Assembly: GCA_964439625.1 (NCBI GenBank)
Contig: CAYTPI010000001.1
Span: 80,944-144,943, forward strand
Direction of reading: 5' to 3'
Length of the DNA stretch: 64,000 nt
Source of the DNA: an uncultured Anaerolineae bacterium
GTDB taxonomy: Bacteria; Chloroflexota; Anaerolineae; Aggregatilineales; UBA3940
In this document: positions 4,886-44,053 of the stretch, in pieces
How positions within the stretch are numbered: the stretch's first letter is position 1
How the letters are laid out: every line of letters begins with the position of its first letter
The notes under the pieces: generated by a model
What the model saw: the letters and a program-made list of their open reading frames with translations, nothing else
What the model was told of the DNA's origin: nothing
The model's database searches: none
Position numbers and translations under genes: made by a program

Positions 4886-5012
4886 GAGTGCTGCTGAAGG
4901 AGTCGGGTCCTACGCGGCGTATACCGATGAACCTGGTCAGGTCCGAGAGGAAGCAGCCATAAGACGGACCATACGGGTGCCGTAGGGTTGCCTGGCTCCC
5001 TCAGCAGCACTC
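4886..5012 (+). ncRNA. ffs: Signal recognition particle RNA (small bacterial 4.5S type)
   Basis: Conserved domain-IV core cctGGTCAGGTCCGAGAGGAAGCAGCCataag (E. coli 4.5S has GGUCAGGUCCGGAAGGAAGCAGCC). The terminal helix is closed by perfect pairing of GAGTGCTGCTGA (4886-4897) with TCAGCAGCACTC (5001-5012), followed by a T-run (5013-5020). Confidence 0.9.
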
Positions 5013-11766: not shown

Positions 11767-14700
11767 TTAGGGGTCGATGGTCGTTTGAGGTGTGCTAAAG
11801 AATGGCCCACTGCCGCCACCGCTTTTGTTCGTGTAGACGGGTATAGTAAGTGTAAAAATACTGCCGCCTTCTTCTGCATCACGCACCCAGATGCGCCCAC
11901 CATGCGCCTCAATAGCTAACTGGCAGAATGCCAGCCCGATGCCCGTACTATAGCGGCGTCCTTGCCGCCCGGGTACTTGCTTGAAGCGATCAAAGATGCT
12001 CTTCTTGAATTCGTCTGGAATGCCGGGACCTTGGTCGTGTACTTCGACTTGCAGCACCTCTGTCCCTGCTTCTTCTAGCTCTGTACGAAAGGCTTTCAAC
12101 GCGACAAGAGTGCCCGGTTCTGTATACTTGAGCGCGTTATCAACGATGTTCAGGATCACACGTTCGATCATGCTTGGATCAACGCGTGTCTCAGGTAAGT
12201 TCTTTTCAACCTCTGCTGTTAGCACGACGTCGAGTTCTTGGGCGATGGGCCGCATCTCCCCGATGACCGCGTCAATTGTCGAGGTGATATCGATAATTGA
12301 CGCATCTACAGAAATATTACCATCACTCAAGCGAGATACATCGAGCAGGTCATTGATTAGGTTCAACAACTTTTTGATGGCTCGCGAACTTGTCTGCACA
12401 GACTGGAAAATAATGGCATTATCTGGCTCAGCATGGCGCTCGATTAACGACATGCTGGTCATAACCGCCGTCAACGGGCCGCGTAGGTCGTGTACCATCA
12501 TACTGGTTAGGTCTTCGCGTGCCTGTTCTAGTTCGTGTTGTTCGGTAACGTCGCGGAAGATCAGCAATAGGCCAATGAAGTTGCCATTGGTATCTCGCAC
12601 TGGAGTCACTGTCCGCTCTACAAATCTCTGCCGCTTGTTGATGGTCACACGAGTGACATATAGGTCGGTTTGGGCGGGCATATTGGGGTTGCGAATGCAG
12701 CGGCCCAACAGCGTTTTTAATTCACCTTCTTTATAGCCCAGGCCTTCGCCTAGTGCAGTTAATGGGTCTTGGGCGAATTGCTCTGGGCTGCGCTCCATGA
12801 AATCGTCGCGGGCGAAATCCCAAAAGTCGTGCATGCGCGAATTTGTCATCACAATACGTGAACGTCCATCGATCATCAGTAACCCATCGAGGCTAGAGTC
12901 CAAAATCGCATGGAGACGGTCGCGCACGAGCTGCGAGTGGAAGAATAATTGCGCATTGCGAATAGCAATCGACGCTTGAACTGCTAATTGACTGACAAAC
13001 TTAACATCATCATCGTTAAAAGTCTGTTCGTGGGGGCTTTCAAGGATGATGGCTCCGATCACAGTCGTCTCTTGGAAGATTGGGATGCCCAACTGCGATA
13101 AGGGTTCCCCTGCGTCTATTATCTGTTGGTTGATCACTGTTTCGCCTTGCTCAACGACAATATTGGTTGACTCTTCCTGCGCAACGTGATGCGGCATCCG
13201 ACGTGACACAGTTGGATCGAACCCACGCCAGGCCACCAAGTTTAGGGCACCGCCAATACCAAGCTGCTCAGATTCGTGAAGATCACCTGCGAGCAGCAAA
13301 ATCCCAGATGCAGCACTCGTAGCCTCTACTGCCGAGTCGATGAGGAGGTCAAACACCTGTTCCAAGTCGAGTGTCGAGCTTAAGCGCCTTCCAATCTCGC
13401 TGACACTGACAATTTGTTCTGCCTGACGGCTTACCTGCTCATCAACGCGTTCATAGAGACGAGCATTTTCAATTGCCAATGCTGATTGGTTGGCGAAGGT
13501 GCCTAGCATCCGTAGTTCAGTCTGTCCAAAGCGGTGAATATGCTTGTAGTAGATAGCAATGATGCCAACGATCTTTATGGGGCTGGTCAGGGGTAGGTAG
13601 GCATATGACGTGAAGTCTTCTTGCTCAGCCAGTAGGCGTACTGCTTGAAATACCTGTGTGTTGGGGTCATGAACGTTCTCGATTGTAATGATTTCGCCCT
13701 CTGCCAGTAGCCGCTCGATTTCTTCCGGTTGTAAGGGCAGGTTAATTGCCTGAGACCGGACTGTATAACCAGGCGAAAACTTCTCGGCATGAGCCAACTC
13801 TAGCTTGATACTGTCGTCGCTTGTCTCGTTGAGGAGATAAATCGCTGCTTTATCGCAATTGGCAAATTGTACAATACCTTCCGCAATCAGATTAAGAACA
13901 CGCTCCGGGTCGAGCGAAGCGCTCAGTGAGATATTAAGTAGGTTGAGACGCTCCAAACGTTCCGCATGCCCGGCTGACTCCTCATAAAGCATGGCATTTT
14001 CAAGCGCGACGCCTGTCTGTGAAGCAATGGCACTAAAGATATCAAAGTCGCTTTGCGTAAACTTCTCCTCAGGCGTTCCGGCTTTTCGCCACGTCAACAT
14101 ACAACCCAACGTCCGCCCCGAAGCGCTGATCGGAACACCCATCCAACTTCCGACACCTTCTGGGAGTTTATGTGCCTCGTTGACGAGCAAGGGCGTCTCT
14201 TTTTCTAAGAGCGTCTGCGTCAGCGGGTCAGACGGAGGATGTGTCCAGCCATTACCCTGACGGGTACCATCGAGCATCTCAAGTGCGGTTTGCCAAGTCT
14301 TATCTTGCGGACGCTGCATAATAATGCGCAAATTACGGGTGCCCAGCAACTGTTCAGACTGAATGTAGACATTATCAACGAGGCTTCCAAGGTCGAGCGT
14401 GCTGCGTAATGCGCGGTGCATTGTGCTAAAAGACTGTAGTTGATGCACTTGGTTAACGAGTGAGCGATGCGTCTTTTCAATTTGGCTGGCCATAAAGGCA
14501 ATCGCAGCCACAATTGCGCAAAAGACCCACAGGGCGGCACTGCCTAACTGCCAGAAGGTGAGAGCACCAAGTGGAGCAAGAATCATTGGTAAAATTTGTA
14601 TCGCAAGGATGGTTTGTCGATGCTCAAATGCAAGCCGCAGCGCAGGTAGCTTGCGACTAACCAAGTCGAGAATGAGTAGTCCGTCGTACACAATCAGGAA

Positions 14701-15183
14701 GATGAGGATTGCGATACTGACTTGTGCAGCCGTTTGCACGCTCGGGACACCATCAAGCGGAACTACCCCCCCAAGTGCCATAAATGTGACGGAGGCAGCA
14801 ACCAAGGCCAGAATGTTTTTTGACAGTAGCCAAACCTCATCTAGTAGGCGCGTGCTAACCGGCTGCGTTGCCTGTTGGTTGTGGTGGAGAATGAGATGCA
14901 GAATACCACCGGCAATTAGGCCGACTGTGAGGGCGATGTAAGCCGTGCTTTCACCCAGCGAGAAGTAACATAATAGCGATGCTACCGGCAGCAGGGTCAA
15001 GTCTTGAAAATCAAACTTGAGGCTGGTATTTCGAATAACAGCAACCATAATGATAAGTGGTGCGGTAATCAAAATTGCGCCGAACAAGGCACTAAGAGAA
15101 GGCGGAGCCTGAATCATCAATACAATGATACTGGCTAACCCGGCAACAAGTCTGATGGTGATGTTAGCCACTAAGTTCTTCAT
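11767..15183 (-). CDS. Sensor histidine kinase: polytopic N-terminal membrane module, 3 GAF, PAS, HisKA, HATPase_c
   Basis: About 8 TM spans in the first ~235 aa. Three GAF-like blocks, each ending in (A/S)(L/I)A(L/I)(E/R)NA(M/R/Q)L(Y/F). PAS (LDGLLMIDGRSRIVMTNSR). H-box VHDLRGPL. N/G boxes IVDNALKYT, DQGPGIP, GIGLAFC. Confidence 0.9.
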   Translation of the reverse strand: MKNLVANITIRLVAGLASIIVLMIQAPPSLSALFGAILITAPLIIMVAVIRNTSLKFDFQDLTLLPVASLLCYFSLGESTAYIALTVGLIAGGILHLILHHNQQATQPVSTRLLDEVWLLSKNILALVAASVTFMALGGVVPLDGVPSVQTAAQVSIAILIFLIVYDGLLILDLVSRKLPALRLAFEHRQTILAIQILPMILAPLGALTFWQLGSAALWVFCAIVAAIAFMASQIEKTHRSLVNQVHQLQSFSTMHRALRSTLDLGSLVDNVYIQSEQLLGTRNLRIIMQRPQDKTWQTALEMLDGTRQGNGWTHPPSDPLTQTLLEKETPLLVNEAHKLPEGVGSWMGVPISASGRTLGCMLTWRKAGTPEEKFTQSDFDIFSAIASQTGVALENAMLYEESAGHAERLERLNLLNISLSASLDPERVLNLIAEGIVQFANCDKAAIYLLNETSDDSIKLELAHAEKFSPGYTVRSQAINLPLQPEEIERLLAEGEIITIENVHDPNTQVFQAVRLLAEQEDFTSYAYLPLTSPIKIVGIIAIYYKHIHRFGQTELRMLGTFANQSALAIENARLYERVDEQVSRQAEQIVSVSEIGRRLSSTLDLEQVFDLLIDSAVEATSAASGILLLAGDLHESEQLGIGGALNLVAWRGFDPTVSRRMPHHVAQEESTNIVVEQGETVINQQIIDAGEPLSQLGIPIFQETTVIGAIILESPHEQTFNDDDVKFVSQLAVQASIAIRNAQLFFHSQLVRDRLHAILDSSLDGLLMIDGRSRIVMTNSRMHDFWDFARDDFMERSPEQFAQDPLTALGEGLGYKEGELKTLLGRCIRNPNMPAQTDLYVTRVTINKRQRFVERTVTPVRDTNGNFIGLLLIFRDVTEQHELEQAREDLTSMMVHDLRGPLTAVMTSMSLIERHAEPDNAIIFQSVQTSSRAIKKLLNLINDLLDVSRLSDGNISVDASIIDITSTIDAVIGEMRPIAQELDVVLTAEVEKNLPETRVDPSMIERVILNIVDNALKYTEPGTLVALKAFRTELEEAGTEVLQVEVHDQGPGIPDEFKKSIFDRFKQVPGRQGRRYSTGIGLAFCQLAIEAHGGRIWVRDAEEGGSIFTLTIPVYTNKSGGGSGPFFSTPQTTIDP

Positions 15184-28472: not shown

Positions 28473-28559
28473 CGGGGAGGACAGGATTCGAACCTGCGGT
28501 ACCCTTGCGGGCACAACTGCTTAGCAGGCAGCCCCAATCGTCCACTCTGGCACCTCCCC
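28473..28559 (-). tRNA. tRNA-Ser (anticodon GCT), class II, CCA not encoded
   Basis: Reverse complement GGGGAGGTGCCAGAGTGGACGATTGGGGCTGCCTGCTAAGCAGTTGTGCCCGCAAGGGTACCGCAGGTTCGAATCCTGTCCTCCCCG. Anticodon loop is CTGCTAA. It has a long variable arm and the T-loop GGTTCGAATCC. Confidence 0.9.
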
Positions 28560-28581: not shown

Positions 28582-28672
<91 letters not shown>

Positions 28673-30547: not shown

Positions 30548-31711
30548 ATGTCTGATATAAAAAGTGATGCATCACATATGATTTTACTCGTCGATGATGA
30601 TCCAGCAATTCTTGAAGGCGTCGCCGACTTGCTGCGTCTGTATAACTATAACGTCATAACGGCAATTGACGGCAGCGATGCACTATCACAAATGCAGCTT
30701 ACTAAGCCAGACATCATCGTCTCTGATATTATGATGCCAGACATGGACGGCTACGAGTTTTTTGAAACGGTACGGGCAAATGCTTCATGGACAACAATTC
30801 CGTTTATCTTCTTAACCGCCCGTGGTCAAGCAAAAGATATTCGTCTAGGTAATATGCTGGGTGCAGATGCTTACTTAACTAAGCCTTTCGATCCGGAAGA
30901 CTTAATTGTGCTGGTAAAATCACGCTTGCAGCGTGTTCATGACATACACGAGGCAACACAGCATGATATCGACCGCATGAAGAATCAGCTAATCACAATC
31001 TTCAGCCATGAACTCCGCACGCCGTTGACATATATCTATGGCTACGTCAACTTATTGCAAGAGCAGCACACCGAACTTGAAGCGAACACTGTTGAGGACA
31101 TGCTGACGGGCGTTCAACGTGGTGCCGAGCGGCTGGTGAACCTCGTTGAGGACCTGATGCTGCTTGTGCGCATCGATAGTGGGATCGTCGAGATGGAAAT
31201 CAATATGCGCCAAGACGCCATAAACCTGCATGAACTGGTACAGCTTATATTGAGTGAATTTAAGCATGAAATTGCTAAACAGCGGCTTGAGGTCGAGATG
31301 GACATTGACCCTGCCATCGAAATCTATGGGATGGAATTACACCTGCGCGATGCGCTAAAGCGCGTGATTGATAATGCACTTAAATTCAGCCATCGTGGCG
31401 AAGGGCTTGTAACAGTGCGTGGGTACGCTCAAGGCGATCAGATCGTGATTGAAGTCATTGACCGTGGGATTGGCATCGCCGCGGGCAAACTTGATCAAAT
31501 CTTCGAACGCTTTAAGCAGCTTGACCGTGACCTTATGGAACAGCAAGGTATCGGGCTTGGCTTGAGTATTGCTGACACGATCATTACGTTGCACCATGGG
31601 CAGCTCTCTATCGAGAGCGAAGTTGGAGTCGGGACGACCTGCCGAATTTCTCTCCCCAATAGTGGCAGTGTTTTTAGTACGAACGGTATGGTAGAAATCA
31701 TCGACGCTTAA
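30548..31711 (+). CDS. Hybrid receiver-histidine kinase (REC-HisKA-HATPase_c)
   Basis: REC (LLVDDDPAILE, DIIVSDIMMPDMDG, LTARG, TKPFD). H-box FSHELRTPL. IDNALKFS, DRGIGI, GIGLGLSIA. Confidence 0.9.
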   Translation: MSDIKSDASHMILLVDDDPAILEGVADLLRLYNYNVITAIDGSDALSQMQLTKPDIIVSDIMMPDMDGYEFFETVRANASWTTIPFIFLTARGQAKDIRLGNMLGADAYLTKPFDPEDLIVLVKSRLQRVHDIHEATQHDIDRMKNQLITIFSHELRTPLTYIYGYVNLLQEQHTELEANTVEDMLTGVQRGAERLVNLVEDLMLLVRIDSGIVEMEINMRQDAINLHELVQLILSEFKHEIAKQRLEVEMDIDPAIEIYGMELHLRDALKRVIDNALKFSHRGEGLVTVRGYAQGDQIVIEVIDRGIGIAAGKLDQIFERFKQLDRDLMEQQGIGLGLSIADTIITLHHGQLSIESEVGVGTTCRISLPNSGSVFSTNGMVEIIDA

Positions 31712-32714: not shown

Positions 32715-33146
32715 TCAGTTGGTTATAGGTTTGATATGATCTTTTATCTGATCGTGGAATACGCGCGTATTGATTGGCTTAGAAATGTAGCCTTCACACT
32801 CATATGCATCTATCATTTTCTTTGCAGTTTCAGATGGCCATGCCGTAACGACAATAATCGGAGTATTGGGCAGGGCCTCTGGTTGTTTGAGCCATCCTGC
32901 GACTGTCTGACCGTCAACATCTGGTAGACCTAGGTCTAACAATATCAGATTTGGGTTTTGCGCCAACGCCATTTCCAAGCCAGACTCGCCATCTTCTGCG
33001 TGAAATAATTGATAATTGTGACGTTGTAATACGCGTAGCATCAAACGAGCGTTCTTGGGGTTATCCTCAATAATCAGAATCTTGGCGGCTGTGTTTTCAG
33101 TTGATTGATTGGCACTTGTTTCAGTTTCCACAGTCACACTCCCCAC
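32715..33146 (-). CDS. Stand-alone response-regulator receiver
   Basis: ILIIEDNPKN, NLILLDLGLPDVDG, VVTAW, SKPIN. Confidence 0.9.
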   Translation of the reverse strand: MGSVTVETETSANQSTENTAAKILIIEDNPKNARLMLRVLQRHNYQLFHAEDGESGLEMALAQNPNLILLDLGLPDVDGQTVAGWLKQPEALPNTPIIVVTAWPSETAKKMIDAYECEGYISKPINTRVFHDQIKDHIKPITN

Positions 33147-33241: not shown

Positions 33242-33784
33242 TTATTGCTCCTGCTGGCCTTTTGAACGCTTAACAACTTTGCTCTCGACTTTTGCTTTGG
33301 ATTTTTTGTTTTCGTTTTTTGCTTTCGCGGCAGCTACTTTAGATTTACTCTCATCAGTCGTAGTCTTTTTCTTTGAATCTGTTTCTTCCGCAGGTATGCT
33401 AGCCTTCGTTTGAGCCGCTGGTAAAAACGTCTTCAAGGCTTCTCGAAGTTCATCACGGCTAATGGGCTTCCGCAGATAGCCGTCACAGCCTGCGGCAAGA
33501 AAGCGCTCGCGGTCGCCAACCATCGCGTTCGCCGTCAGTGCCACAATGGGGACTTCCTGCATAGCGGGGTTTTCTTTGAGCCGTTTAGTCACCTCAATGC
33601 CTGTGATATCAGGCAGGTTGATATCCATCAAGATGAGGTCAGGGGCAAGCTCCGGCGCCATTTTGAGTGCTGTTTCGCCGTCCTCAGCTTGGTGAACATC
33701 GTAGCCTCTCTTCTCAAGCTGCAGCATCCGGTTGACGAGTCGGAAGTTCTGGAAATTGTCTTCGACGTACAGGATGGTAGTCAT
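33242..33784 (-). CDS. Response-regulator receiver with Lys-rich disordered C-terminal tail
   Basis: ILYVEDNFQN, DLILMDINLPDITG, ALTANA, RKPIS, then about 55 aa of K/E/S/A-rich tail (KKKTTTDESKSKVAAAKAKNENKKSKAK...). Confidence 0.9.
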   Translation of the reverse strand: MTTILYVEDNFQNFRLVNRMLQLEKRGYDVHQAEDGETALKMAPELAPDLILMDINLPDITGIEVTKRLKENPAMQEVPIVALTANAMVGDRERFLAAGCDGYLRKPISRDELREALKTFLPAAQTKASIPAEETDSKKKTTTDESKSKVAAAKAKNENKKSKAKVESKVVKRSKGQQEQ

Positions 33785-33793
33785 ATAATCTCC

Positions 33794-34252
33794 CTAAATG
33801 ACTGTACTTGGGTTGGTGTTGCCTGTATCGTTTTGTGCAGATGTATCGGGTGTACTTGTGCTGGCTTCTTGCTGGCCTGCTTCGCGGTGACTGCCTTGCT
33901 GAATGAACTGCTCAATTTGCCCGGCGAATGCGCGCGTATCAATCGGCTTGGTAATGTAGCCATCACAACCATATGTCATGGCCCGTCGCTGTGTGGCGGT
34001 GTCAGTGCTGCCAGTCACAGCAACGACGGGGATATCACCTGGGATGCGGTTCAACAGAGCCGCAATGGTGTGACCACCAATATCAGGTAAACCGAGGTCA
34101 AGTAAAACAAGGTCCACGGTTTCCTCACTGGCAATCTTAAGCCCCGCTAGCCCCTCCGACGCATGCTTAACTTCATGCCCATTACGAGACAACACACGCC
34201 TGACGATATTTGCACTGTGTGGGTCATCTTCAATTACTAGTATCTTCGCCAT
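33794..34252 (-). CDS. Stand-alone response-regulator receiver with short Q/S/T-rich tail
   Basis: ILVIEDDPHS, DLVLLDLGLPDIGG, AVTGS, TKPID. Confidence 0.9.
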   Translation of the reverse strand: MAKILVIEDDPHSANIVRRVLSRNGHEVKHASEGLAGLKIASEETVDLVLLDLGLPDIGGHTIAALLNRIPGDIPVVAVTGSTDTATQRRAMTYGCDGYITKPIDTRAFAGQIEQFIQQGSHREAGQQEASTSTPDTSAQNDTGNTNPSTVI

Positions 34253-34263
34253 GTGTTTGCTCC

Positions 34264-36387
34264 TCAGTTGGCCTTGTCGAACATACTCATAATTTCTTTC
34301 TGAAGCATGGTTCGTTCAATGGCCCCCTTTGTCAGGGTTTTATCGACTCGGGTTTCCAGAATTTTGCGCTCTTTGCGTGTTAGGTCTTTTGCCGTCAGTA
34401 AGATGACGGGCGTCTCCTGAGCAATCGAATGTTCTCGCAGGTGTTCGAGTAGCTCAATGCCTGTCATATCAGGCAGCATTAAATCTAAGATGATTAAATC
34501 TGGTGCCATTTGTTCCAAGAACTCAATCGCTTGTTCACCAGTATGCGCTTCGTAGACTTCACACTGCCGCTGATCTTTCAGTGTTCGCTTAAGTAAGCGT
34601 CCGTCTAGTGGGTTGTCTTCAACTAAGAGGAGCTTGAACTGTGATTGCTCAAACTCGCTAGCCGCTGGTGCTTTAGTAGGGATAGTAGTTCCTTCTGGGT
34701 GCTTATTGTTGTCGCTGCTGGGTAGCAGTCGTGGTTCATCACCTAGGGTCGTGACAATATGATTGACAAGATCGTGCGTATTGTAGTTACCCTTGACCCA
34801 TAACGACACGGTTTTGCGCTCTAAGTCATTTTGTTCCGTTTGGCTTAGAGTCTTGCCAGAGACGACAATAACGGGTATTTCAGCGGTGAGTTCATCGGCC
34901 TTGAGGGTATCTATCAAGTCAAAGCCATTGACGTTAGGCATCATTAAATCAACGATGACCAGATCAGGCTGGCGGTATCGCACAAGGTCAAGACCTGTAT
35001 CAGGGTCGTTAGCTTCAAATATGCGATACGACTTATGCCGTTGTAACAAGCGTTTAATTAAGCGGCTGTCTTGCGGTGAGTCATCGATGACAACAATGCT
35101 GGTAATGCGTTCATCGAGGAACTCAAGCGCTGCTCCTAAGCCCTCTTCGGGAAGGACGCCCCATTGATCCGCCAGTTCACTTTTGACGGCAATATCAACA
35201 ACTTGCTGGTCACTGAGAATAAACTTCTCAACAGGCATCGTGTGCCCAGACGCGTTAATGACAACTTTGTGCTCAGGTGCTACCAGCCCTTGTGCGACCA
35301 TCTTGGCAAAACCTGCAAAGGCCACAGCAGTTGCTGGCTCAACAGAAATCCCTTCTAACCGGGCAAGACGTCGCATCCAAGTGAACGCCTCATCATCAGA
35401 GACCGATACCATCGTGCCGCCCATTTGCTTCGTTGCTCGGTACAAATAGGTATAACCAAACCCCGGCGCGCCGGTCGACAAAACTGTAATCGCGGTTCTC
35501 GGTTCTATGGGCTCGGCTTCTTCTTGGTCTTGCTCGAATGCGCGTACCATTGGGGCGCATCCATCAACCTGAATAATGCCAAGCCGTGGCAGGCTGTCTA
35601 CCATGCCAATCTGCTTGAGCTCTGTGAAGCCTTTCCACACACCGATTGGGCCTAAGCCACCGCTTACGGCCTGTATGAACCAATCCGGGGTGTGCCAGTT
35701 AAGCTGTTCAGCAATTTCAAAAGCCATGGTCTTCATGCTTTCTTTGCTCGCAATTGCCTTAGCGCCGCGTTCGTAGTGAATGCCGTGGCGTTTGGCAAAG
35801 CTGGCTGCAACCACCTTGGTCTGATCGTATGTGCCCGTCACTTTGATCACGTCAGCGCCATACAACGAGATTTCCCGCATTTTTTCACCAGGAACCTGAC
35901 TGGTTAGAAATACCCACAGCTTAATTCCGGCACGGGCACAATAGGCAGCATAGGCAGTTGCGGCGTTCCCTGTCGAGGCGATCACGGCATCTTTGACCCC
36001 AGAGGCAACTAAAGCGGATACAGCAAGTGATGCTTGCCTATCTTTGAAGGAACTGGTCGGGCCGCGGCGCTCATCCTTGATGTAAATATGCTTATGGTTT
36101 AAATAGTCGCCAAGACGTGTTGCCTGAAACAGTGGTGTAGCCCCCTCTACCATGGTAACGCGATGCACATCATTGACGGGTAGCAAATGCTTGTAACGCC
36201 AGAGACCATCGGCATTATTCCCGAGGCCATCAGGCCAAAGCTTGCTGACAGCCTCATAGTCGTACCGGGCATCTACCCATGGTGAGCCGCACGATGTGCA
36301 GGCTACCACATCAAGTGTTGCGGGCATCATATGGTCACATGCTAGACATGCGACCTGTTTGAATGTACTGCTGACTGAAGGTGTCAA
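34264..36387 (-). CDS. Threonine-synthase-like PLP enzyme fused to two C-terminal receiver domains
   Basis: N-terminal Cys4 ribbon (CLAC...CTSC). PLP-Lys motif PTSSFKDRQA (Lys codon 36043-36045). ASTGNAATAYAAY and AVSGGLGP, colinear with ThrC. REC1 (VVIDDSPQD, DLVIVDLMMPNVNG, VVSGK) and REC2 (LLVEDNPLD, DLIILDLMLPDMTG, LLTAK). TTG start. Confidence 0.85.
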   Translation of the reverse strand: MTPSVSSTFKQVACLACDHMMPATLDVVACTSCGSPWVDARYDYEAVSKLWPDGLGNNADGLWRYKHLLPVNDVHRVTMVEGATPLFQATRLGDYLNHKHIYIKDERRGPTSSFKDRQASLAVSALVASGVKDAVIASTGNAATAYAAYCARAGIKLWVFLTSQVPGEKMREISLYGADVIKVTGTYDQTKVVAASFAKRHGIHYERGAKAIASKESMKTMAFEIAEQLNWHTPDWFIQAVSGGLGPIGVWKGFTELKQIGMVDSLPRLGIIQVDGCAPMVRAFEQDQEEAEPIEPRTAITVLSTGAPGFGYTYLYRATKQMGGTMVSVSDDEAFTWMRRLARLEGISVEPATAVAFAGFAKMVAQGLVAPEHKVVINASGHTMPVEKFILSDQQVVDIAVKSELADQWGVLPEEGLGAALEFLDERITSIVVIDDSPQDSRLIKRLLQRHKSYRIFEANDPDTGLDLVRYRQPDLVIVDLMMPNVNGFDLIDTLKADELTAEIPVIVVSGKTLSQTEQNDLERKTVSLWVKGNYNTHDLVNHIVTTLGDEPRLLPSSDNNKHPEGTTIPTKAPAASEFEQSQFKLLLVEDNPLDGRLLKRTLKDQRQCEVYEAHTGEQAIEFLEQMAPDLIILDLMLPDMTGIELLEHLREHSIAQETPVILLTAKDLTRKERKILETRVDKTLTKGAIERTMLQKEIMSMFDKAN

Positions 36388-36592: not shown

Positions 36593-39500
36593 TTAGTCGC
36601 CTGTGAATTCATCGACTTCTTCACCAGAGCGGTGCCCATTACCATTACTGCTGCTTGCGTGGCCGTTTCGGCTAACATTACCACCTATCGAGTCTTCATC
36701 CGGTAGGTCTTCACTTGTGGGTTCTAATGGCAATGACAGTATAAACACACTACCCGTACCTGGTTCACTGCTTTCTAGCCAGACATCGCCACCATGGAGA
36801 CGGGCCAACTGCCGGGTAATTGCCAACCCAAGCCCAGTGCCGCCTGCTTTGCGGGTTGCAGACCCGTCTGCCTGACGGAATTGGTCGAAGATGAAACTGT
36901 GCTGCTCATACGGGATGCCAATACCAGTATCTTGAACTTCGACATGTAACCAGCGATTGTTGACGGTCATCACACCAACCCGGACGTAGCCTTTTTCGGT
37001 GAACTTAATGGCGTTACTGAGCAAGTTCCAAATGACCTGCCGGATGCGAACAGCATCCGCACTGACGACGGGTAGGTCTTCCTCAATTTCGATCCGCAGC
37101 TCAACGCTAGGCTTGTCCCGTAGTTGGACGCGTAACATGTCAACAATCTGTGGCAGAGTGTTGGTCAAGTCAACTTGGCTGCGATTAAGCTCCATGCGGC
37201 CTGCCTCGATCTTCGCGAGATCAAGAACGTCATTGATAATGGCGAGCAAATGGTGCCCGCTAGAGTGAATAGCCTTGATGTCGTCGAGCGCCATCTCATC
37301 GAGTTCTTCTTTCATCTCATCGATCAGCAGTTCGGAGTAGCCGATGATCGAGTTGAGCGGTGTTCTTAACTCATGGCTCATGTTCGCTAGGAACTCAGAC
37401 TTCAACTGGTCGACTTCGCGCAGCTTGTCCATAGTCTTCAACTGCTCTTGATAGAGTTCTGCGTTCGAGATAGCAATGGCTAACTGGCTCGCCAGAATGG
37501 AGAGTGTCCGGATTTCGTCATTGTTGAACTGCTCGGCCCTGTCTTGCTGCACGTCGAGAACACCGACCACATCGTCACCGACTGCCAGTGGAATGGCAGC
37601 CTCTGATATTGTGTCGGGTAATAGTGGGTTCGGTAAGTGGAACGGGTCGGTGCGGACGTCGTTCACAACGACGGGCTCCAGTGTTCTGGCGGAGCGAGCA
37701 ACCAGGCTTCGGCCTGCATCCATCGGAATGCTGTGCTCGCGACGTTTCATTTCGCTGCCTGCATGGCCTAAACCCGCACGTACTGTCAGGACGCCCTGCT
37801 CACGGTTCATCAAGTAGATGTGGCAATAGTAGTAGTCAAAGGCTTGTGCAACCCGGGTGACGGTGTTGTCCAGCAACTCCTCGATATCCAGGGTGGCAGT
37901 TAACTGACGCGCCAACTCGTAAGCTGTTTCTTGCCGGCGTTCAATGCGCCGCTCTTCAGTGATGTCTCTGGAGATACCCAGAATGTAAACAACTTTGCCT
38001 GCGTTATCCATAACGGGTATTTTTCGTGTTTCTAGAACCCGCTGCTCGCCGTTGGCAAACTCAACCAAGTCGTTCGCGTTGTAGACGATCTGTCCTTTCT
38101 CCAAGACTTTTAGATCATCGGCGCGGTAGCCAGGTGTGCCACCAATTTCTCCGGTGATGTAGGCCTCGTCCGACAAGTCCTCGTCGCGCTTGCCAATAAT
38201 TTCCTCTGGTGAGAGGGCAAAGGCCTCGGTAGTCATTTTTTCATTTGCTAACACGAAGCGTAGGTCACGGTCTTTCAAGAAAATCCAGTCAACGGAGGCA
38301 TCGATCACTGAGCGGATTAGGCGCTCTGACTCAGCGGTGTTGACTAAGGCATCGCGGACGCGGTTGAGCAGCAACTGGTTACTAACGGTTATGGATGCCT
38401 GCTCAGCAACTGACCGGTAGAAGCGTTCCGTCTGTTCACTGATTGCACCGGGTTCTGTGCCCGTTAGAGAAATCCAACCGAGCCAGCGGCGGCTGCTGTC
38501 TCGCAACAGCAAGCTCATCATGCTGCGGGCGGTGCTCATCTGCGGAACGGTCTCACGCGTGATGTCATCAATGCGCTGATCTTTGTCAAGATCCGCTGCA
38601 TAGAATAGGCCGTCAACTGCATTGTCTCTTAGCGACAGGAGCAGATCATGGTCGATGCCCTCCGAGGACTGAGTGACCTGAGCCTGCTTATCAGTCATAG
38701 AGTAAGCGGACATATGTTGATATGTGCTAATTGACTGACCGATGGTTATAGGTTCATCAAATAGGTATAGGTCTAGCCGGTCAAGATGAGCAGGTGGCGT
38801 AGTGCTGACAATTGCTTGCAGCAGTTGGTCGAAGGAACCGGCTGCAGCAATGCTGCTAGAAGCCTCATACAGGCTTTCTGTCAGTCTCAGGCTTGCTTCT
38901 GTCTCACTGAACAACTCTGCGTTCGACAGCGCAACAGCAAGCTGGCTGGACACAATCTCTAGCGTGTTGATTTCCGCTTCGTCAAAAGCGAATGGCGTGT
39001 CTTGCTGAATGTCAAGGACACCCAAGACGCGTTTACCAAGCGAGATTGGTATCGCGACTTCTGCTTGCGTTTGCGGGAGCAGCGGGTTCGGTAAATGACC
39101 AGGGTCAGTGGTGACATCATCGACCGCGATGGATTGATTGTCTCGAGCGGCGGCTGCTACAAAGCTTCGGGCGGCATTTAATGGAATGGCGTGCCCACGA
39201 TTTTTGAGTTGCTGGCCTGCTTGGCCTAGACCTTCTGCTAGGAAGAGGACGTTCTCTTCTTCATCTAGAAGGTAGATATGCGCATGGTAGTAGTTGAATG
39301 TATCTGCCAATTGGCTAACCGTAATCGACAGTAGTTCTTGCGGGTCAAGCACAGTGCTCAGACTGCGGGCCAGTTCACGACCAAGCGTCTCACGCTCCGT
39401 CTGGCGGATACGGTCGGTCACGTCATATTGCAGACCGACGAAGTAAGTCAGGTCACCCTCACGGTTGACAATCGGTGAGATGTTCAACTCGTTGTAGAAG

Positions 39501-42500
39501 AGCGTGCCGTCTTTACGGTAGTTTCTCAACAAGACGGTTGTCTTGCGGCCTTCCTCCAGCGCTGACCGTAGTTCGTCAAGGGCTTCTTGGTCGCGATCAT
39601 CGCTCTGAAGGAAACGACAGTTGTTGCCGACAGCCTCGTCAAAGCTGTAGCCGGTGATGGTCGTAAAGGCCTCGTTGACGTAAGTCAGGGGCATGTCTGG
39701 CTGACGGGCATCTACAATTGAGACACCAACCAGACTACTTTCAACCGCTGCTTGCTGCAACTGGAGCTCTTCGATCAGGCGCGTGTTCTCAAGGGCCGAG
39801 CTCAACTGCGTGGTGATAATTTCGAGAAGCTGGATTTCCTCGTTGGTGAAGTAGTCTTTCTGGTCGTGCTGAACGTCAAGCACACCAATAATGCGTCCAC
39901 CGGCATCCATCGGAATAGCTGCCTCTGACTTCGTGCGTGGGAGCAGAGGGTTCGGTAGGTGCCCAGGGTTTTGCCGCACGTCGTTCACAATCACTGGCTC
40001 GCCAGTACGCGCGGCTTCAGCCACAAGACTGCGTTGGGCCCCCAGCGGGATAGTGTGGCGGCGTGCCTTCATCGATGCACCCGCTTCACCGAGGCCTTCG
40101 ACAACAACCAAGGCCTGATCGCCTTCATTAAGCAGATAGATATGCGCATGGTAGAAGCCGAAACCGCGGTCTAGCTGCTCAATGGTGCGTTCTAACAGGC
40201 GCTCTTGGTTGAAGATAGAACTCAATTCTTGCGCCAATTCATAGGCTGTAGTTTGGCGCACCTGCCGCAGTGCGCTTTCGGTCACATCGGAAATACTGGC
40301 GATGATGTTGTCACTATCTTGGACTTGGGAGAAACTGGCATTGAAGTAGCGTTTACCAATTGGCAAGTCGAGCGTGTAGCGCATCGACTGCACCGCACCA
40401 GTTTCACGGGTAACGTCGAGCAGTTCTTCAAACGCTTCACCAGTCTGCCCTGGTAATACTTGAATAGGTGTTTTGCCAATCAGGTTGGCACGCTCCTCTA
40501 CCAGCAGTTCATCTGATGAGGCGTAAACCTGTAAGTGGCGGTTGTCGCAGTCGAACACGGTGAGTATGTTTGGAATGGAACTCACGACGATGTCTAACTC
40601 AGCCAACGCCTGCTGTGCATTTTCGAGCGCCTGCTGCGCTTCAAAGGTTGTTGAAATTTGAGTCCCTAATTGACCATAGAAACGCTGATCAGCACGGGTA
40701 AATATTTGTGGGTCGGGGAAGTTCACTGTGATAAGCCCGAGCCAACGTCCACCAATCGCCAGCGGCAAAAGAACGAGGCCGCGAACGTCAAGGAGCGTGT
40801 AGGTTGCTTTTTGATCTTCAGTCAGTCGTTCGGATGCTTTAATGTCGTCGATCAAGCGGGCCTGTGTTGGGTCTTCCAGCCAGACGTCGGCAAATGGAAT
40901 TTCCGCAATTTCAAATACAGCACCCTGTGGCATTGCGATGCCTTCATCGGTAGCGGCTGAGGCTGAGACGCGCGCCGTTTCCGGTACACCATCAGCATTG
41001 AGATCAAAGGTAAACAACGAAACCGAGGCCGCACCGCGTTCAAAGCTGCGCTCTGCGATGGCTTGCAGCACTTCGCTGCTGGTTGGCGCTTCAATAATGG
41101 TACGCGAGGTTTCAAACAGCAGTTCTGATTCGCTCAATGCCAGCGACGTTTGGCGCAGCAGACGCTGGTTGTCTAACACGTTGGCAAACTGTGGGGCCAA
41201 CAAGTCAAGCATCTGATACTCGTCGTCTTGCAGCTCAACTTTGTCCGACCAGACCAACGTTACTAGGCCAACCCAGCGCCGCCCGAGCGGTACCAGTGGC
41301 ACCAGCGTCACAGCGGTGATGCCTGTCTTGATCAAGGTGTCACGCAGTTCGTCGTTCAAGCGGTCATCTGAGACGATGTCCGGTATGGACTGAATAACGT
41401 TCAAGTTACCGAAAATCAACTCCAAGAGTTGAAAATTATCTAGTTCGTACATCGTACCGATAGGGGCATCATCGTGCACCACATCGGTGTTGTTGGTGCG
41501 GGCCGCCAGTTCAAACATGACTGGGTTGCCAGCCTCATCGTTGATCACAAGGTGAAGTGTCGCCGTGCCGGGGTTCGAATTCAGAATGGGCTCGACGAAG
41601 GTTTCCAGTAATTGCTGTGGATTATCAAGCTCGTTGAGGCGGCGACCAATCTGGTAGAGCGTCTCAACTTGGAATAGGGCTTCTTCTGTCTGGCGAAGCA
41701 GTTGTGCGCCGGTAATGGTGTACGCAATCGAGATAGCAGCGGTTTGCATCAACTCAATTTCGGACTCTTCCCAAAGGCGTTCCTCTTCGGTTTCGTCTAT
41801 ACCGATGACGCCGAACAATGTATTCTCAACCATAATCGGAATGAGCAAGATAGACTGTGCGCCCATTTCATGCATCAGGTTGCGCTCGTGCTTGTGTGGT
41901 TCCGTGGTAACCGAGCTGAGAACCGTTTTGCCCTGCTGAAGTTCGTTGTACCAGTTAGGCATGGCGTCTTCGAGTACCATATTCCGTAGGCTTGGGTTTT
42001 CGCTGTACTTTGTCTTTCTTGGGGATGCCCAATCATAGAGAATTCCATCATTGCCAAGGTCATCATCCAGCGGTGTTATGTGCCGGACAAGGAAGACATG
42101 GCACGCACGAGAGACTTCGCCAAGAATACGAATGGAGTCATTCAACCCATCGATGCCGAGGTTTAACAGGTTGGTAGCAACTCGAGCTACTGCCGCTGAG
42201 AAGCGGTTCTGGCGAGCTAGGTTGTCTAGTGCGTTGCGGGTTTGTTCTTGTGCTTCTTGCAGACTCTGGAAGGTGCGCGCGTTTTGCACCGCCACAGATA
42301 CCTGACCTGCCAATGTGTTCATCACCAAAATGGTTTCTGGTTTGAAGTAATCTACCCGTTCCGATTGCAAGTCAAGAACGCCAAGTACCTCGTCTTCTGC
42401 GAGTAGCGGCAGGGCTAACTCTGATCGTGTCTCGGGGAGCAGGGGGTTCGGTAAGTGTCCTACTTCCTTACTGACATCAGCAATAACGATTGCTTGCTTG

Positions 42501-44053
42501 CCGCGTGCAGCGCGTGCCACTAAGGAGCGCTCGGCCTGAGCAGAAATTGCATGGCCTTGCTGCTTCATGAAGCGGCCTGCTGTTCCTGCACCGGCTTCCA
42601 TCTTGAGCATATCTGTCGATGGATCTAATAGGTAGACATGAGCATGATAGAGACCAAAGCTTTCTTTCGTTAACTCAGCGACTTGAGGCAGCACTTCTTC
42701 CAGTGACAGACTGCGGGATATCTGCTGCGAGACTTCCGCGGCAATCTCTAGATCGCGGGTGCGTTCTGCAACCCGATCTTCGAGCGTGGTAATGGTCTCT
42801 TCAAGCTGTTCTGCCATCGTATTGAAGGCATTGCCCAACTCACCGAACTCGTCTTGGCGGTTGACTTCTACTCGCGTGCCGAGGCCACCCTCACTAGAAA
42901 TTCGCTGCGCACCTTCGCGAAGCTGTTCGAGTGGTTGCGTGAAGGTCAGTGTAAGCTGCCGTGCAACGACCAGCGCGAGGGCAACCACGACACCAAGGGT
43001 TGCCAACAACAGCGTAGTTGAGCGGCGTACGGGTGTTAAAATAAATTCTGTCCGTGCGAGGCCAATCACATGCCAGTTGACGAACGCCAAACTCTCAGAG
43101 TCGCTCAAGGAAATCGGTTCAATGAAGGCGGCTGCTTCGGCCCCATCTTGACTCGCAACAATGTTGAACTGAGCATCAAAAAAGCCCATACCGAGTGCAT
43201 CCGCAGAAAGCTGGTTAGCAATTAACCCAGGGACTGCGCGAAGTTGCTCGTTTGGTTCATAGGGTTGCCCGGCTTGGAATAGAATATCTCCGATGGAATT
43301 GACAAGCAGGTATTCGCCAGCCGGTGAATTAACCAGTTGCACTGTCAAACCCTCGATGTTGTACAGGCTGTGCATGACAGCGACTGTGCCGGAGCGGTCA
43401 ACTTCAATTGGCGTTGCGATTGTGACAACAGCATTGCCTGTGCGTTCATTGGTCCGGACTTCTGGATCGATGTAAAATTGTTCGGCTTCACCCTCAATGG
43501 CTGACTGCCACCAAGCAGTATCATTATAGAGGTAAGGGACATCCCGCTCGGTTGATGCAATTAATGCACCGAACTGGTCTACAATAATCATCTCTTCATG
43601 GAACGGGACGTCGGTGGTGACATCCTGTAATCCCCTTGCGCTGTCGCCTGACAGCACCCCCAGTCGGATCGCAGCCGTATCGTTAGTATTGTTCCAACGG
43701 GCTTCAGCCTCTGCAATGCGCTCGCTGCGAATCGTTTCATCTTCCGGATAGTTTGATAGCCGAGCGACAATATCACGCTGAATAATTTCGCTCGCACTGA
43801 AAATGTTCATGAAATCAACTTGATCTTCAATGGCGGCTGTGATTTCCCCTGCGGCAGCACGTGTGCTTTCTTCAAGGTCGGCGTTGGCTTGCTGCACTGT
43901 GTCCGCCCGCGTGCGGAAGATCGCCAGTAAGGCGATGACAATTAGCGGAATAGTTGCAACAAGGAGGATAGATAGCAGAAGGCGTCTTCCGACGGAGCTT
44001 CTGTTTTGTGGGGCATTTTGTGATTCCGAGGGCATTGAGTCCATGGTTGCCAC
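36593..44053 (-). CDS. Giant sensor histidine kinase (2486 aa): TM, Cache-like sensor, TM, HAMP, ~8 GAF, 3 PAS (one LOV), HisKA, HATPase_c
   Basis: TM1 (LLLSILLVATIPLIVIALLAIF), about 300 aa extracytoplasmic, TM2, HAMP (FTQPLEQL...GELGNAFNTMAEQL). GAF blocks, four of them carrying GHLPNPLLP. H-box MSHELRTPL (His codon ~37373-37375). LLSNAIKFT, DTGIGIP, GTGLGLAI. The ATG at 44044, 6 nt after AAGGTG, is an alternative start. Confidence 0.9.
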   Translation of the reverse strand: MATMDSMPSESQNAPQNRSSVGRRLLLSILLVATIPLIVIALLAIFRTRADTVQQANADLEESTRAAAGEITAAIEDQVDFMNIFSASEIIQRDIVARLSNYPEDETIRSERIAEAEARWNNTNDTAAIRLGVLSGDSARGLQDVTTDVPFHEEMIIVDQFGALIASTERDVPYLYNDTAWWQSAIEGEAEQFYIDPEVRTNERTGNAVVTIATPIEVDRSGTVAVMHSLYNIEGLTVQLVNSPAGEYLLVNSIGDILFQAGQPYEPNEQLRAVPGLIANQLSADALGMGFFDAQFNIVASQDGAEAAAFIEPISLSDSESLAFVNWHVIGLARTEFILTPVRRSTTLLLATLGVVVALALVVARQLTLTFTQPLEQLREGAQRISSEGGLGTRVEVNRQDEFGELGNAFNTMAEQLEETITTLEDRVAERTRDLEIAAEVSQQISRSLSLEEVLPQVAELTKESFGLYHAHVYLLDPSTDMLKMEAGAGTAGRFMKQQGHAISAQAERSLVARAARGKQAIVIADVSKEVGHLPNPLLPETRSELALPLLAEDEVLGVLDLQSERVDYFKPETILVMNTLAGQVSVAVQNARTFQSLQEAQEQTRNALDNLARQNRFSAAVARVATNLLNLGIDGLNDSIRILGEVSRACHVFLVRHITPLDDDLGNDGILYDWASPRKTKYSENPSLRNMVLEDAMPNWYNELQQGKTVLSSVTTEPHKHERNLMHEMGAQSILLIPIMVENTLFGVIGIDETEEERLWEESEIELMQTAAISIAYTITGAQLLRQTEEALFQVETLYQIGRRLNELDNPQQLLETFVEPILNSNPGTATLHLVINDEAGNPVMFELAARTNNTDVVHDDAPIGTMYELDNFQLLELIFGNLNVIQSIPDIVSDDRLNDELRDTLIKTGITAVTLVPLVPLGRRWVGLVTLVWSDKVELQDDEYQMLDLLAPQFANVLDNQRLLRQTSLALSESELLFETSRTIIEAPTSSEVLQAIAERSFERGAASVSLFTFDLNADGVPETARVSASAATDEGIAMPQGAVFEIAEIPFADVWLEDPTQARLIDDIKASERLTEDQKATYTLLDVRGLVLLPLAIGGRWLGLITVNFPDPQIFTRADQRFYGQLGTQISTTFEAQQALENAQQALAELDIVVSSIPNILTVFDCDNRHLQVYASSDELLVEERANLIGKTPIQVLPGQTGEAFEELLDVTRETGAVQSMRYTLDLPIGKRYFNASFSQVQDSDNIIASISDVTESALRQVRQTTAYELAQELSSIFNQERLLERTIEQLDRGFGFYHAHIYLLNEGDQALVVVEGLGEAGASMKARRHTIPLGAQRSLVAEAARTGEPVIVNDVRQNPGHLPNPLLPRTKSEAAIPMDAGGRIIGVLDVQHDQKDYFTNEEIQLLEIITTQLSSALENTRLIEELQLQQAAVESSLVGVSIVDARQPDMPLTYVNEAFTTITGYSFDEAVGNNCRFLQSDDRDQEALDELRSALEEGRKTTVLLRNYRKDGTLFYNELNISPIVNREGDLTYFVGLQYDVTDRIRQTERETLGRELARSLSTVLDPQELLSITVSQLADTFNYYHAHIYLLDEEENVLFLAEGLGQAGQQLKNRGHAIPLNAARSFVAAAARDNQSIAVDDVTTDPGHLPNPLLPQTQAEVAIPISLGKRVLGVLDIQQDTPFAFDEAEINTLEIVSSQLAVALSNAELFSETEASLRLTESLYEASSSIAAAGSFDQLLQAIVSTTPPAHLDRLDLYLFDEPITIGQSISTYQHMSAYSMTDKQAQVTQSSEGIDHDLLLSLRDNAVDGLFYAADLDKDQRIDDITRETVPQMSTARSMMSLLLRDSSRRWLGWISLTGTEPGAISEQTERFYRSVAEQASITVSNQLLLNRVRDALVNTAESERLIRSVIDASVDWIFLKDRDLRFVLANEKMTTEAFALSPEEIIGKRDEDLSDEAYITGEIGGTPGYRADDLKVLEKGQIVYNANDLVEFANGEQRVLETRKIPVMDNAGKVVYILGISRDITEERRIERRQETAYELARQLTATLDIEELLDNTVTRVAQAFDYYYCHIYLMNREQGVLTVRAGLGHAGSEMKRREHSIPMDAGRSLVARSARTLEPVVVNDVRTDPFHLPNPLLPDTISEAAIPLAVGDDVVGVLDVQQDRAEQFNNDEIRTLSILASQLAIAISNAELYQEQLKTMDKLREVDQLKSEFLANMSHELRTPLNSIIGYSELLIDEMKEELDEMALDDIKAIHSSGHHLLAIINDVLDLAKIEAGRMELNRSQVDLTNTLPQIVDMLRVQLRDKPSVELRIEIEEDLPVVSADAVRIRQVIWNLLSNAIKFTEKGYVRVGVMTVNNRWLHVEVQDTGIGIPYEQHSFIFDQFRQADGSATRKAGGTGLGLAITRQLARLHGGDVWLESSEPGTGSVFILSLPLEPTSEDLPDEDSIGGNVSRNGHASSSNGNGHRSGEEVDEFTGD
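39409..39736 (-). other. LOV (light-oxygen-voltage, flavin-binding PAS) domain inside the giant kinase
   Basis: VSIVDARQPDMPLTYVNEAFTTITGYSFDEAVGNNCRFLQSDDRDQEALDELRSALEEGRKTTVLLRNYRKDGTLFYNELNISPIVNREGDLTYFVGLQYDVTDR. The adduct-forming Cys lies in NCRFLQ (codon 39617-39619). The flavin-contact N (RNY), N...N (YNELN) and Q (GLQ) are all present. Confidence 0.8.

Follow-up and report, generated by a model that had tools for sequence, protein, structure and literature searches.

A threonine-synthase-like PLP domain joined to two phospho-receivers in Anaerolineae: a candidate phosphorylation-controlled enzyme family

The window analyzed here is a stretch of 64,000 nucleotides from an uncultured Anaerolineae bacterium (GenBank assembly GCA_964439625.1, contig CAYTPI010000001.1, positions 80,944 to 144,943), and the gene under study occupies positions 34264-36387 of its minus strand. 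According to the list of open reading frames (ORFs) and their translations, this ORF, whose coordinates include the stop codon, starts with TTG and encodes a protein of 707 amino acids (aa), in which a pyridoxal 5'-phosphate (PLP) domain resembling threonine synthase (ThrC) is followed by two phospho-receiver (REC) domains. Judged from its sequence, the fused protein belongs to an Anaerolineae-wide family of tandem-receiver response-regulator-type proteins, and its PLP domain is a divergent ThrC-like fold-type II domain, not a canonical threonine synthase. The reading we prefer, to which we give about an even chance, is that the protein would be a phosphorylation-controlled PLP enzyme whose chemistry is other than the canonical conversion of O-phosphohomoserine to threonine.

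The fused protein and its divergence from threonine synthase

A first-pass annotation of the window, made from the letters alone, had proposed a ThrC-like PLP domain and two receivers within one ORF. This is borne out by Pfam, which matched PALP at 220.4 bits and Response_reg twice (133.6 bits). The motifs it quoted are all in the translation, namely PTSSFKDRQA (holding K115, the PLP lysine), ASTGNAATAYAAY, AVSGGLGP, DLVIVDLMMP (holding D480) and DLIILDLMLP (holding D635), as are the four cysteines of the proposed ribbon (C14, C17, C30 and C33). Given that the same cysteine ribbon appears in the alignment of canonical Anaerolineae ThrC, it is an ancestral feature rather than one tied to the fusion. 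The AlphaFold2 model of the whole protein has a mean predicted local distance difference test score (pLDDT) of 87 and three confident domains, the two receivers being confident (beta-alpha)5 folds. The domains are joined by linkers predicted to be disordered at residues 395-414 and 550-578, the first of which has a median length of 34 aa in the family (range 28-50).

The top NCBIfam models are threonine synthases. The whole protein scored 285.9 bits with PRK08197 (cut-off 303) and 166.2 bits with TIGR00260 (cut-off 167.1), the PLP domain alone scored 288.1 and 168.1 bits with the same two models, and the remaining ThrC models, PRK05638 among them, scored far under their cut-offs. Membership of PRK08197 is ruled out, as the fused domain stays at 288 bits against 303 and the true PRK08197 proteins form a different clade, an example of which (P0154) scored 549 bits and carries FKARG and TGGGxG motifs. 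Cysteate synthase (TIGR03844) is likewise ruled out, at 134-136 bits against a cut-off of 324.9. In the PDB, the top matches by sequence and by fold are the threonine synthases 2D1F, 2ZSJ and 1UIM, and among solved structures the protein comes closest to threonine synthases from M. tuberculosis, A. aeolicus, T. thermophilus and B. subtilis. The fold is like that of canonical class I ThrC (1UIM/1V7C, 2D1F, 2ZSJ), with target-normalised Foldseek TM scores of 0.80-0.86 at 29-33% identity.

The active site was compared in an alignment of 119 canonical Anaerolineae ThrC, 113 proteins with the architecture of the fusion (PALP-REC-REC), 109 members of a second fused family with a single receiver (PALP-REC, described below) and 9 unfused relatives. 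Canonical ThrC and the fused domain share the PLP-lysine motif TxSFKDR, the ASTGN loop, EPA and GH; these and the GG loop are 97-100% kept in the fused and canonical clades. The first-pass annotation had proposed a comparison of the substrate-phosphate-binding residues with ThrC, and this came out against conservation. T88, N154, S155, R160 and N188 (T. thermophilus numbering), which are present in 99-100% of the 119 canonical proteins, are all replaced or deleted in the fused clade, where T88 is A or V, N154 is R or K, S155 is G (1.00), R160 is P or A, and N188 is deleted. Further changes in the fused clade are N157 to K, N191 to P (1.00), P185 to S, G64 to Q (1.00) and G53 to R (1.00). In the T. 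thermophilus complexes (Omi 2003, Murakawa 2011), the first five residues reportedly bind the substrate or product phosphate, by which the reaction is steered towards threonine.

The PLP-phosphate loop reads SGGxGP in the fused clade against GGNxGN or GNAGN in canonical ThrC, and R107, Q118 and P247 are newly invariant in the fused clade. Distal-pocket states differ between the fused and canonical clades, each being fixed within its own clade; by this alignment the pocket of the fused domain is both different from that of canonical ThrC and itself strongly constrained. A pocket that is remodelled yet strongly conserved suggests that the site is functional, with another substrate or another reaction, and counts against decay.

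A rough neighbor-joining (NJ) tree with 100 bootstraps shows PALP-REC-REC as monophyletic (100/100), its sister being PALP-REC together with a few unfused proteins (100/100). The fused clades group together (100/100), nested among unfused divergent ThrC-like proteins, and the whole SGGxGP group is split from both canonical ThrC and the true PRK08197 proteins (92/100). The nearest unfused relatives, P0125 (locus L089) and P0298 (locus L090), are 51-65% identical to the fused PLP domain, and the neighbours at these two loci are neither signalling genes nor metabolically informative. One of the two loci shares its contig with LptC/LptD genes, which indicates a host outside Chloroflexota; this points to a diderm host and a possible horizontal transfer with receiver loss.

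Spread of the fusion, its receivers and a sister family

The first-pass annotation had asked how rare the architecture is; it is not rare, there being both a widespread Anaerolineae family and a second, PALP-REC family. A search of 5.8 billion proteins, clustered at 90% identity, yielded at least 120 clusters in which PALP and Response_reg are joined at full length (690-720 aa, 47-81% identity). The named clusters come from metagenome-assembled genomes (MAGs) labelled Chloroflexota, Anaerolineae, Aggregatilineales or 'Thermofonsia', and their members are publicly labelled 'threonine synthase' or 'pyridoxal-phosphate dependent enzyme'. When one genome per GTDB species was scanned and the best 80 loci were taken, all 80 were from Chloroflexota, Caldilineaceae, Ardenticatenales and Thermoflexia among them, and each spanned residues ~3-705. 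Hence, the architecture is widespread in the class Anaerolineae, stands in databases under a probably misleading name and is apparently uncharacterised. A full-text search of open-access papers found no paper on a PALP-receiver protein, and the earlier statement that a fold-type II PLP domain is an uncharacterised partner of receivers stands, no functional characterisation having been found in the open-access literature. One MAG (DAOUGD01, isolate R24_97) has two PALP-REC-REC genes, L050 and L069, on different contigs, showing that the family can be duplicated within a genome. A 1695-aa version in locus L080 was rejected as an ORF-calling artefact of a high-GC locus.

In an alignment of 118 members, the PLP lysine and the acceptor aspartates are invariant. 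The acceptor quintets, D435, D436, D480, S510 and K532 in the first receiver (REC1) and E/D590, D591, D635, T/S665 and K687 in the second (REC2), are each kept in 113-118 of the 118 homologues, confirming the intact phospho-acceptor contexts described before. With the full set of acceptor residues in both, both receivers should be phosphorylatable. In the beta-5 region the sequence is [ILV]-W-x-K-G for REC1 and x-[WFL]-x-K-[GA] for REC2; the canonical DGY[IL]xKP is found in the window's three stand-alone receivers. A tryptophan two residues before the catalytic lysine is found in 113/118 homologues in REC1 (residues 529-533) and 92/118 in REC2 (residues 684-688); the receiver of PALP-REC has leucine at the position of this W in W-x-K-G. 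Neither fused receiver has the FATGUY motif that marks known shuttle or hub receivers, their beta-4 segments being IPVIVVSAK and IPVIVxTAK.

The second fused family was found with the nearest unfused relative as query. Its members, PALP followed by one receiver in ~548 aa, occur in the same taxa, the same genomes and even the same contigs as PALP-REC-REC (loci L085-L170; examples in Table 1). Both families belong to the same divergent ThrC-like clade, with PLP domains ~55-60% identical, and both are encoded behind a giant GAF-rich kinase, which in the PALP-REC system is a hybrid with two receivers. The context of PALP-REC was counted in 77 metagenome loci. An upstream kinase is present in 47/59 of them, 41 of these kinases being hybrids with one or two C-terminal receivers, a REC-kinase lies downstream in 36/61, and an EamA-family transporter is found in 37/50. 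The operon order is hybrid GAF-kinase-REC-REC, PALP-REC, REC-HisKA-HATPase, EamA-family transporter. The transporter suggests a role for some small molecule, as substrate or product, in this sister system; no EamA-like gene was seen in the 84 PALP-REC-REC loci examined or in the window.

The one receiver of PALP-REC and the two of PALP-REC-REC are of the same kind. In profile comparisons, a single receiver sub-family (cross-scores of 105-133 bits) takes in REC1, REC2, the PALP-REC receiver and the hybrid kinase's last receiver, and the stand-alone, REC-kinase and first hybrid-kinase receivers are distant from it (43-70 bits). By sub-family membership, each system thus has two such receivers, spread differently over its polypeptides, which hints that the two act as a pair.

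Gene neighbourhood and coexistence with canonical thrC

The features of the window are presented in Table 1. The first-pass annotation placed the fusion at the head of an operon with two stand-alone receivers, downstream of a LOV-containing kinase of 2486 aa. The head position and the gaps of 11 and 9 nt between the genes, as well as the 205 nt that separate the fusion from the end of the kinase upstream, are as it described; the number of receivers is not, since three are present, the third after a 95-nt gap. The hairpin and promoter-like site between kinase and fusion fit a fusion gene that heads its own transcription unit, and the gene probably has its own promoter, as suggested by consensus matches only; the RNA fold of the hairpin has an energy of -22.3 kcal/mol (z = -5.2). 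No riboswitch or leader RNA was found upstream of the fusion gene at Rfam gathering thresholds. The GNAT-like protein gave weak RimI/Naa-like matches, which are uninformative on its substrate.

Table 1. Coordinates of features in the window and, where a locus is named, in related loci
Feature	Position	Strand	Evidence or remark
ThrC-like-REC-REC protein, 707 aa	34264..36387	-	ORF call, Pfam PALP + 2x Response_reg, AlphaFold2 model
N-terminal Cys4 zinc-ribbon (C14, C17, C30, C33)	36289..36348	-	Cysteines kept in 111-118/118 homologues
PALP domain (fold-type II PLP), aa 77-381	35245..36159	-	PF00291, 220.4 bits, cut-off 35
PLP lysine K115	36043-36045	-	Aligns with K61 of T. thermophilus ThrC (1UIM); invariant in family
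Linker 1, aa ~392-428, predicted disordered	35104..35214	-	pLDDT <50 at residues 395-414
Receiver 1, aa 429-548	34744..35103	-	Pfam Response_reg; acceptor D480 at 34948-34950
Receiver 2, aa 584-705	34273..34638	-	Pfam Response_reg 587-694; acceptor D635 at 34483-34485
Promoter-like site TTCAAA-17-TACAAT	36509-36481	-	Consensus scan, putative
Terminator-like hairpin, 11-bp perfect stem then UUUGUU	36549-36514	-	Just after kinase stop codon
Sensor histidine kinase, 2486 aa, dCache-HAMP-GAFx5-PAS (one LOV)-HisKA-HATPase, not hybrid	36593..44053	-	Pfam
LOV motif NCRFLQ, aa 1478-1483 of kinase	~39605-39622	-	LOV motif
Stand-alone receiver A, 152 aa, 11 nt after fusion	33794..34252	-	Response_reg 85 bits; DGYITKP beta-5 motif
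Stand-alone receiver B, 180 aa, Lys/Glu-rich tail, 9-nt gap	33242..33784	-	Response_reg 100 bits
Stand-alone receiver C, 143 aa, 95-nt gap	32715..33146	-	Response_reg 75 bits
GNAT-like acetyltransferase, 283 aa	31757..32608	-	Acetyltransf_1 49.8 bits
REC-HisKA-HATPase, 387 aa, convergent	30548..31711	+	Pfam; same convergent gene in L005, L037, L077
Two tRNA genes	28473-28559 and 28585-28672	-	Rfam gathering level; unrelated to fusion
Small bacterial signal recognition particle RNA	4901-5000	+	Rfam gathering level; unrelated to fusion
Canonical thrC ~10 kb from fusion, L033	21339-22562	-	
Canonical thrC ~10 kb from fusion, L022	~13690-14487		
Canonical thrC ~10 kb from fusion, L051	~14248-14919		
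PALP-REC gene, L085	10001-11683		
PALP-REC gene, L086	10001-11635		
PALP-REC gene, L087	10001-11662		

Much of this layout recurs. ORFs were called in 84 related loci and their domains assigned with purpose-built profiles, the denominators being the loci whose flanks were long enough. In 56/70 loci the fusion is preceded on its own strand by a GAF-rich histidine kinase, and a stand-alone receiver follows it in 58/73. The neighbourhood is thus fixed, consisting of a GAF-rich kinase, the ThrC-like-REC-REC gene, one to three single-domain receivers and often a GNAT-like gene. The homologue of the GNAT-like protein (cluster c3) is downstream in 24/60 loci and is a conserved partner in one sub-type of the system; a secreted or membrane protein of ~590 aa is downstream in 20/60. 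The closest relatives, L005 and L037, repeat the whole layout of the window, with three receivers, GNAT and the convergent REC-kinase. In 9 related loci a REC-adenylate/guanylate-cyclase-like protein sits between kinase and fusion. A protein of this type, ~356 aa with a receiver and a class III nucleotide-cyclase-like domain (FADIRGFT), was noted in L034, L041 (8899-9969), L050 and L071, and also in L075, L077, L081 and L082. Throughout the 84 loci, the fusion gene stands beside signalling genes rather than hom/thrB.

The LOV domain announced for the upstream kinase is indeed there, with the canonical photo-cysteine motif GNNCRFLQ at aa 1478. The light gating drawn from it would apply to the window's lineage and fails as a family feature, since the motif is present in 2 of the 71 upstream kinases of related loci, namely that of the window and that of its closest relative L005. 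Light control as a property of the family is thereby ruled out, and the link to light is peculiar to the window's lineage.

A separate canonical thrC, which the first-pass annotation had suggested looking for, is present in related genomes. With T. thermophilus ThrC as tblastn query, one was found ~10 kb from the fusion gene in L033, L051 and L022 (46-47% identity), carrying NSINPFRLEGQKT and GGNLGN. This proximity, in 3/84 related loci against ~0.4 estimated by chance, suggests a loose linkage in one sub-lineage. The L033 enzyme as query recovered a further canonical ThrC, P0462, whose gene lies at ~2.30 Mb of ENA contig ctg321994_10x_l (3,680,599 bp; sample ERZ25072999), adjoining prephenate dehydratase and cytidylate kinase; the PALP-REC gene of L086 is at ~3.03 Mb of the same record. 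The PALP-REC-REC locus L074 comes from NCBI contig CBDCER010000003.1, which is likewise 3,680,599 bp long, and for canonical ThrC P0476 and fusion P0057 the longest contig is in both cases one of 3,714,226 bp. Given the coexistence of canonical thrC in related genomes and the replacement of the pocket residues, the fused protein is very probably not the housekeeping ThrC but a paralogue that does not replace it.

Candidate functions and their significance

In the reading we prefer, the upstream kinase, with its dCache, GAF, PAS and one LOV input, would phosphorylate D480 and/or D635. The receivers, tethered by flexible linkers of ~34 residues, would alter their docking on the PLP domain, or the dimerisation around it, according to their phosphorylation state, such that control may come from the relief of inhibitory docking or from changed dimerisation, and the switch would turn a PLP-dependent reaction on an amino-acid-type substrate on or off. 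The single-domain receivers would be competitors for this kinase, serving either as parallel outputs or as phosphate sinks. A narrower version has the phosphorelay-gated enzyme make or destroy a dedicated amino-acid-derived small molecule, a diffusible signal or specialised metabolite, which would be exported by EamA in the sister system and possibly N-acetylated by the GNAT-like protein here; we regard this version as rather unlikely.

Known systems offer partial parallels. Canonical ThrC has no receivers and a biosynthetic context, whereas the fused protein has two receivers appended and a signalling context. CheB, PleD/WspR, RpfG and REC-PP2C likewise link one or two phosphorylatable receivers to an enzyme domain near a sensor kinase, in PleD also in tandem. 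In these proteins, however, the receiver comes first, at the N-terminus, and the targets of the enzyme are signalling molecules or signalling proteins, while here the receivers are C-terminal and their partner is a fold-type II PLP domain. The second receiver of PleD reportedly lacks the acceptor aspartate, which both receivers keep here. PhyR and CheV have an N-terminal functional domain followed by a receiver, so that this order can work under phosphorylation control; at their N-termini, however, stand a sigma-factor mimic and a CheW-like adaptor, neither of which is an enzyme.

Several points weigh against phosphorylation control of an enzyme. With the PLP domain N-terminal and the receivers C-terminal, the PLP domain sits where an input domain usually does, and the order is opposite to that of most enzyme-output regulators. 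Both fused receivers are without the aromatic beta-5 switch residue and the K-P motif, and a published comparison ties variability at the aromatic position to phospho-shuttle receivers that work without allostery (PMC9981736). The AlphaFold2 model, with its long disordered linkers and a predicted TM score of 0.68, has no confident interface between the receivers and the PLP domain. No reaction is assignable from sequence, the coexistence with thrC comes from related genomes and not from the window's own, and what is shown here for the presumed phosphate ligands is their invariance in canonical ThrC.

The domain order, the missing switch features (in which the fused receivers are unlike the stand-alone DGY[IL]xKP receivers) and the tie to shuttle receivers without allostery would instead suit a PLP domain that acts as a ligand sensor. 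Here, the binding of an amino acid or phospho-amino acid as external aldimine would gate the uptake or loss of phosphate by the receivers, making the protein a metabolite-gated phosphate sink or hub that sets the share of giant-kinase phosphate reaching the stand-alone receivers. The surplus of receivers in the operon speaks for it, and so does the last receiver of the sister-system hybrid kinase, whose membership of the same sub-family fits phosphate traffic. GabR/MocR regulators provide a precedent, in that a PLP-binding enzyme-like domain was recruited as a ligand sensor, although MocR domains are fold-type I and aminotransferase-like, are fused to DNA-binding domains with no receiver, and are not homologous to the fused PLP domain. 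However, the loci showed no Hpt domain or other partner for histidine phosphotransfer, the fused receivers lack the FATGUY motif, and the EamA transporter of the sister system suggests metabolite flux. In addition, conservation of the PLP domain is at least as high as in canonical ThrC, which is compatible with sensing yet more simply explained by catalysis. We treat the sensor as the main rival to the preferred reading, though as a minority possibility.

It is improbable that the protein is a genuine threonine synthase isozyme tuned by phosphorylation, like plant ThrC in its allosteric activation by S-adenosylmethionine. Such an isozyme would agree with the best family and structure matches, which are all threonine synthases, with the borderline TIGR00260 score of the PLP domain alone (168.1 bits, cut-off 167.1; whole protein 166.2) and with the public name of the members. 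Moreover, K215, a lysine in 88% of the family, is one position from the lost R160 site and could still bind an anion there. Nevertheless, all five residues invariant in the 119 canonical ThrC are replaced or deleted in the fused clade, the scores fall under the cut-offs of PRK08197, PRK05638 and other ThrC equivalogs, canonical thrC coexists in a housekeeping context (prephenate dehydratase, cytidylate kinase), and the fusion is accompanied by signalling genes in the 84 loci.

Lastly, an assembly or annotation artefact, or a decaying pseudo-enzyme, is hardly credible, as the TTG start with its poor Shine-Dalgarno sequence is the sole weak point, whereas the ORF recurs without a break on >80 independent contigs, which come from many studies (47-81% identity), homologues are colinear across linker 1, where the first-pass annotation had feared a join or frameshift (35100-35150), the PLP lysine, the cofactor loops and the two phospho-acceptor sites vary little or not at all, and all three domains are confidently modelled.

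The known targets of receiver control are DNA binding, second-messenger enzymes, methylesterases and protein partners. To these, a fold-type II PLP amino-acid enzyme domain in covalent union with receivers would add a new class, in which a phosphorelay would either act directly and post-translationally on amino-acid chemistry or receive a metabolite input by way of PLP. The family is fixed across a poorly studied class of Chloroflexota, in two paralogous systems with conserved operons and very large multi-sensor kinases. Given this class-wide conservation of both systems, their function is under selection and probably central to signal integration in these filamentous bacteria. If the small-molecule version of the preferred reading is true, Anaerolineae would switch amino-acid chemistry directly by two-component phosphorylation and not via transcription, and in the window's lineage the LOV kinase would make this switch responsive to blue light as well. 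Finally, hundreds of database entries named 'threonine synthase' are very unlikely to be housekeeping enzymes, which matters for the metabolic reconstruction of Anaerolineae MAGs.

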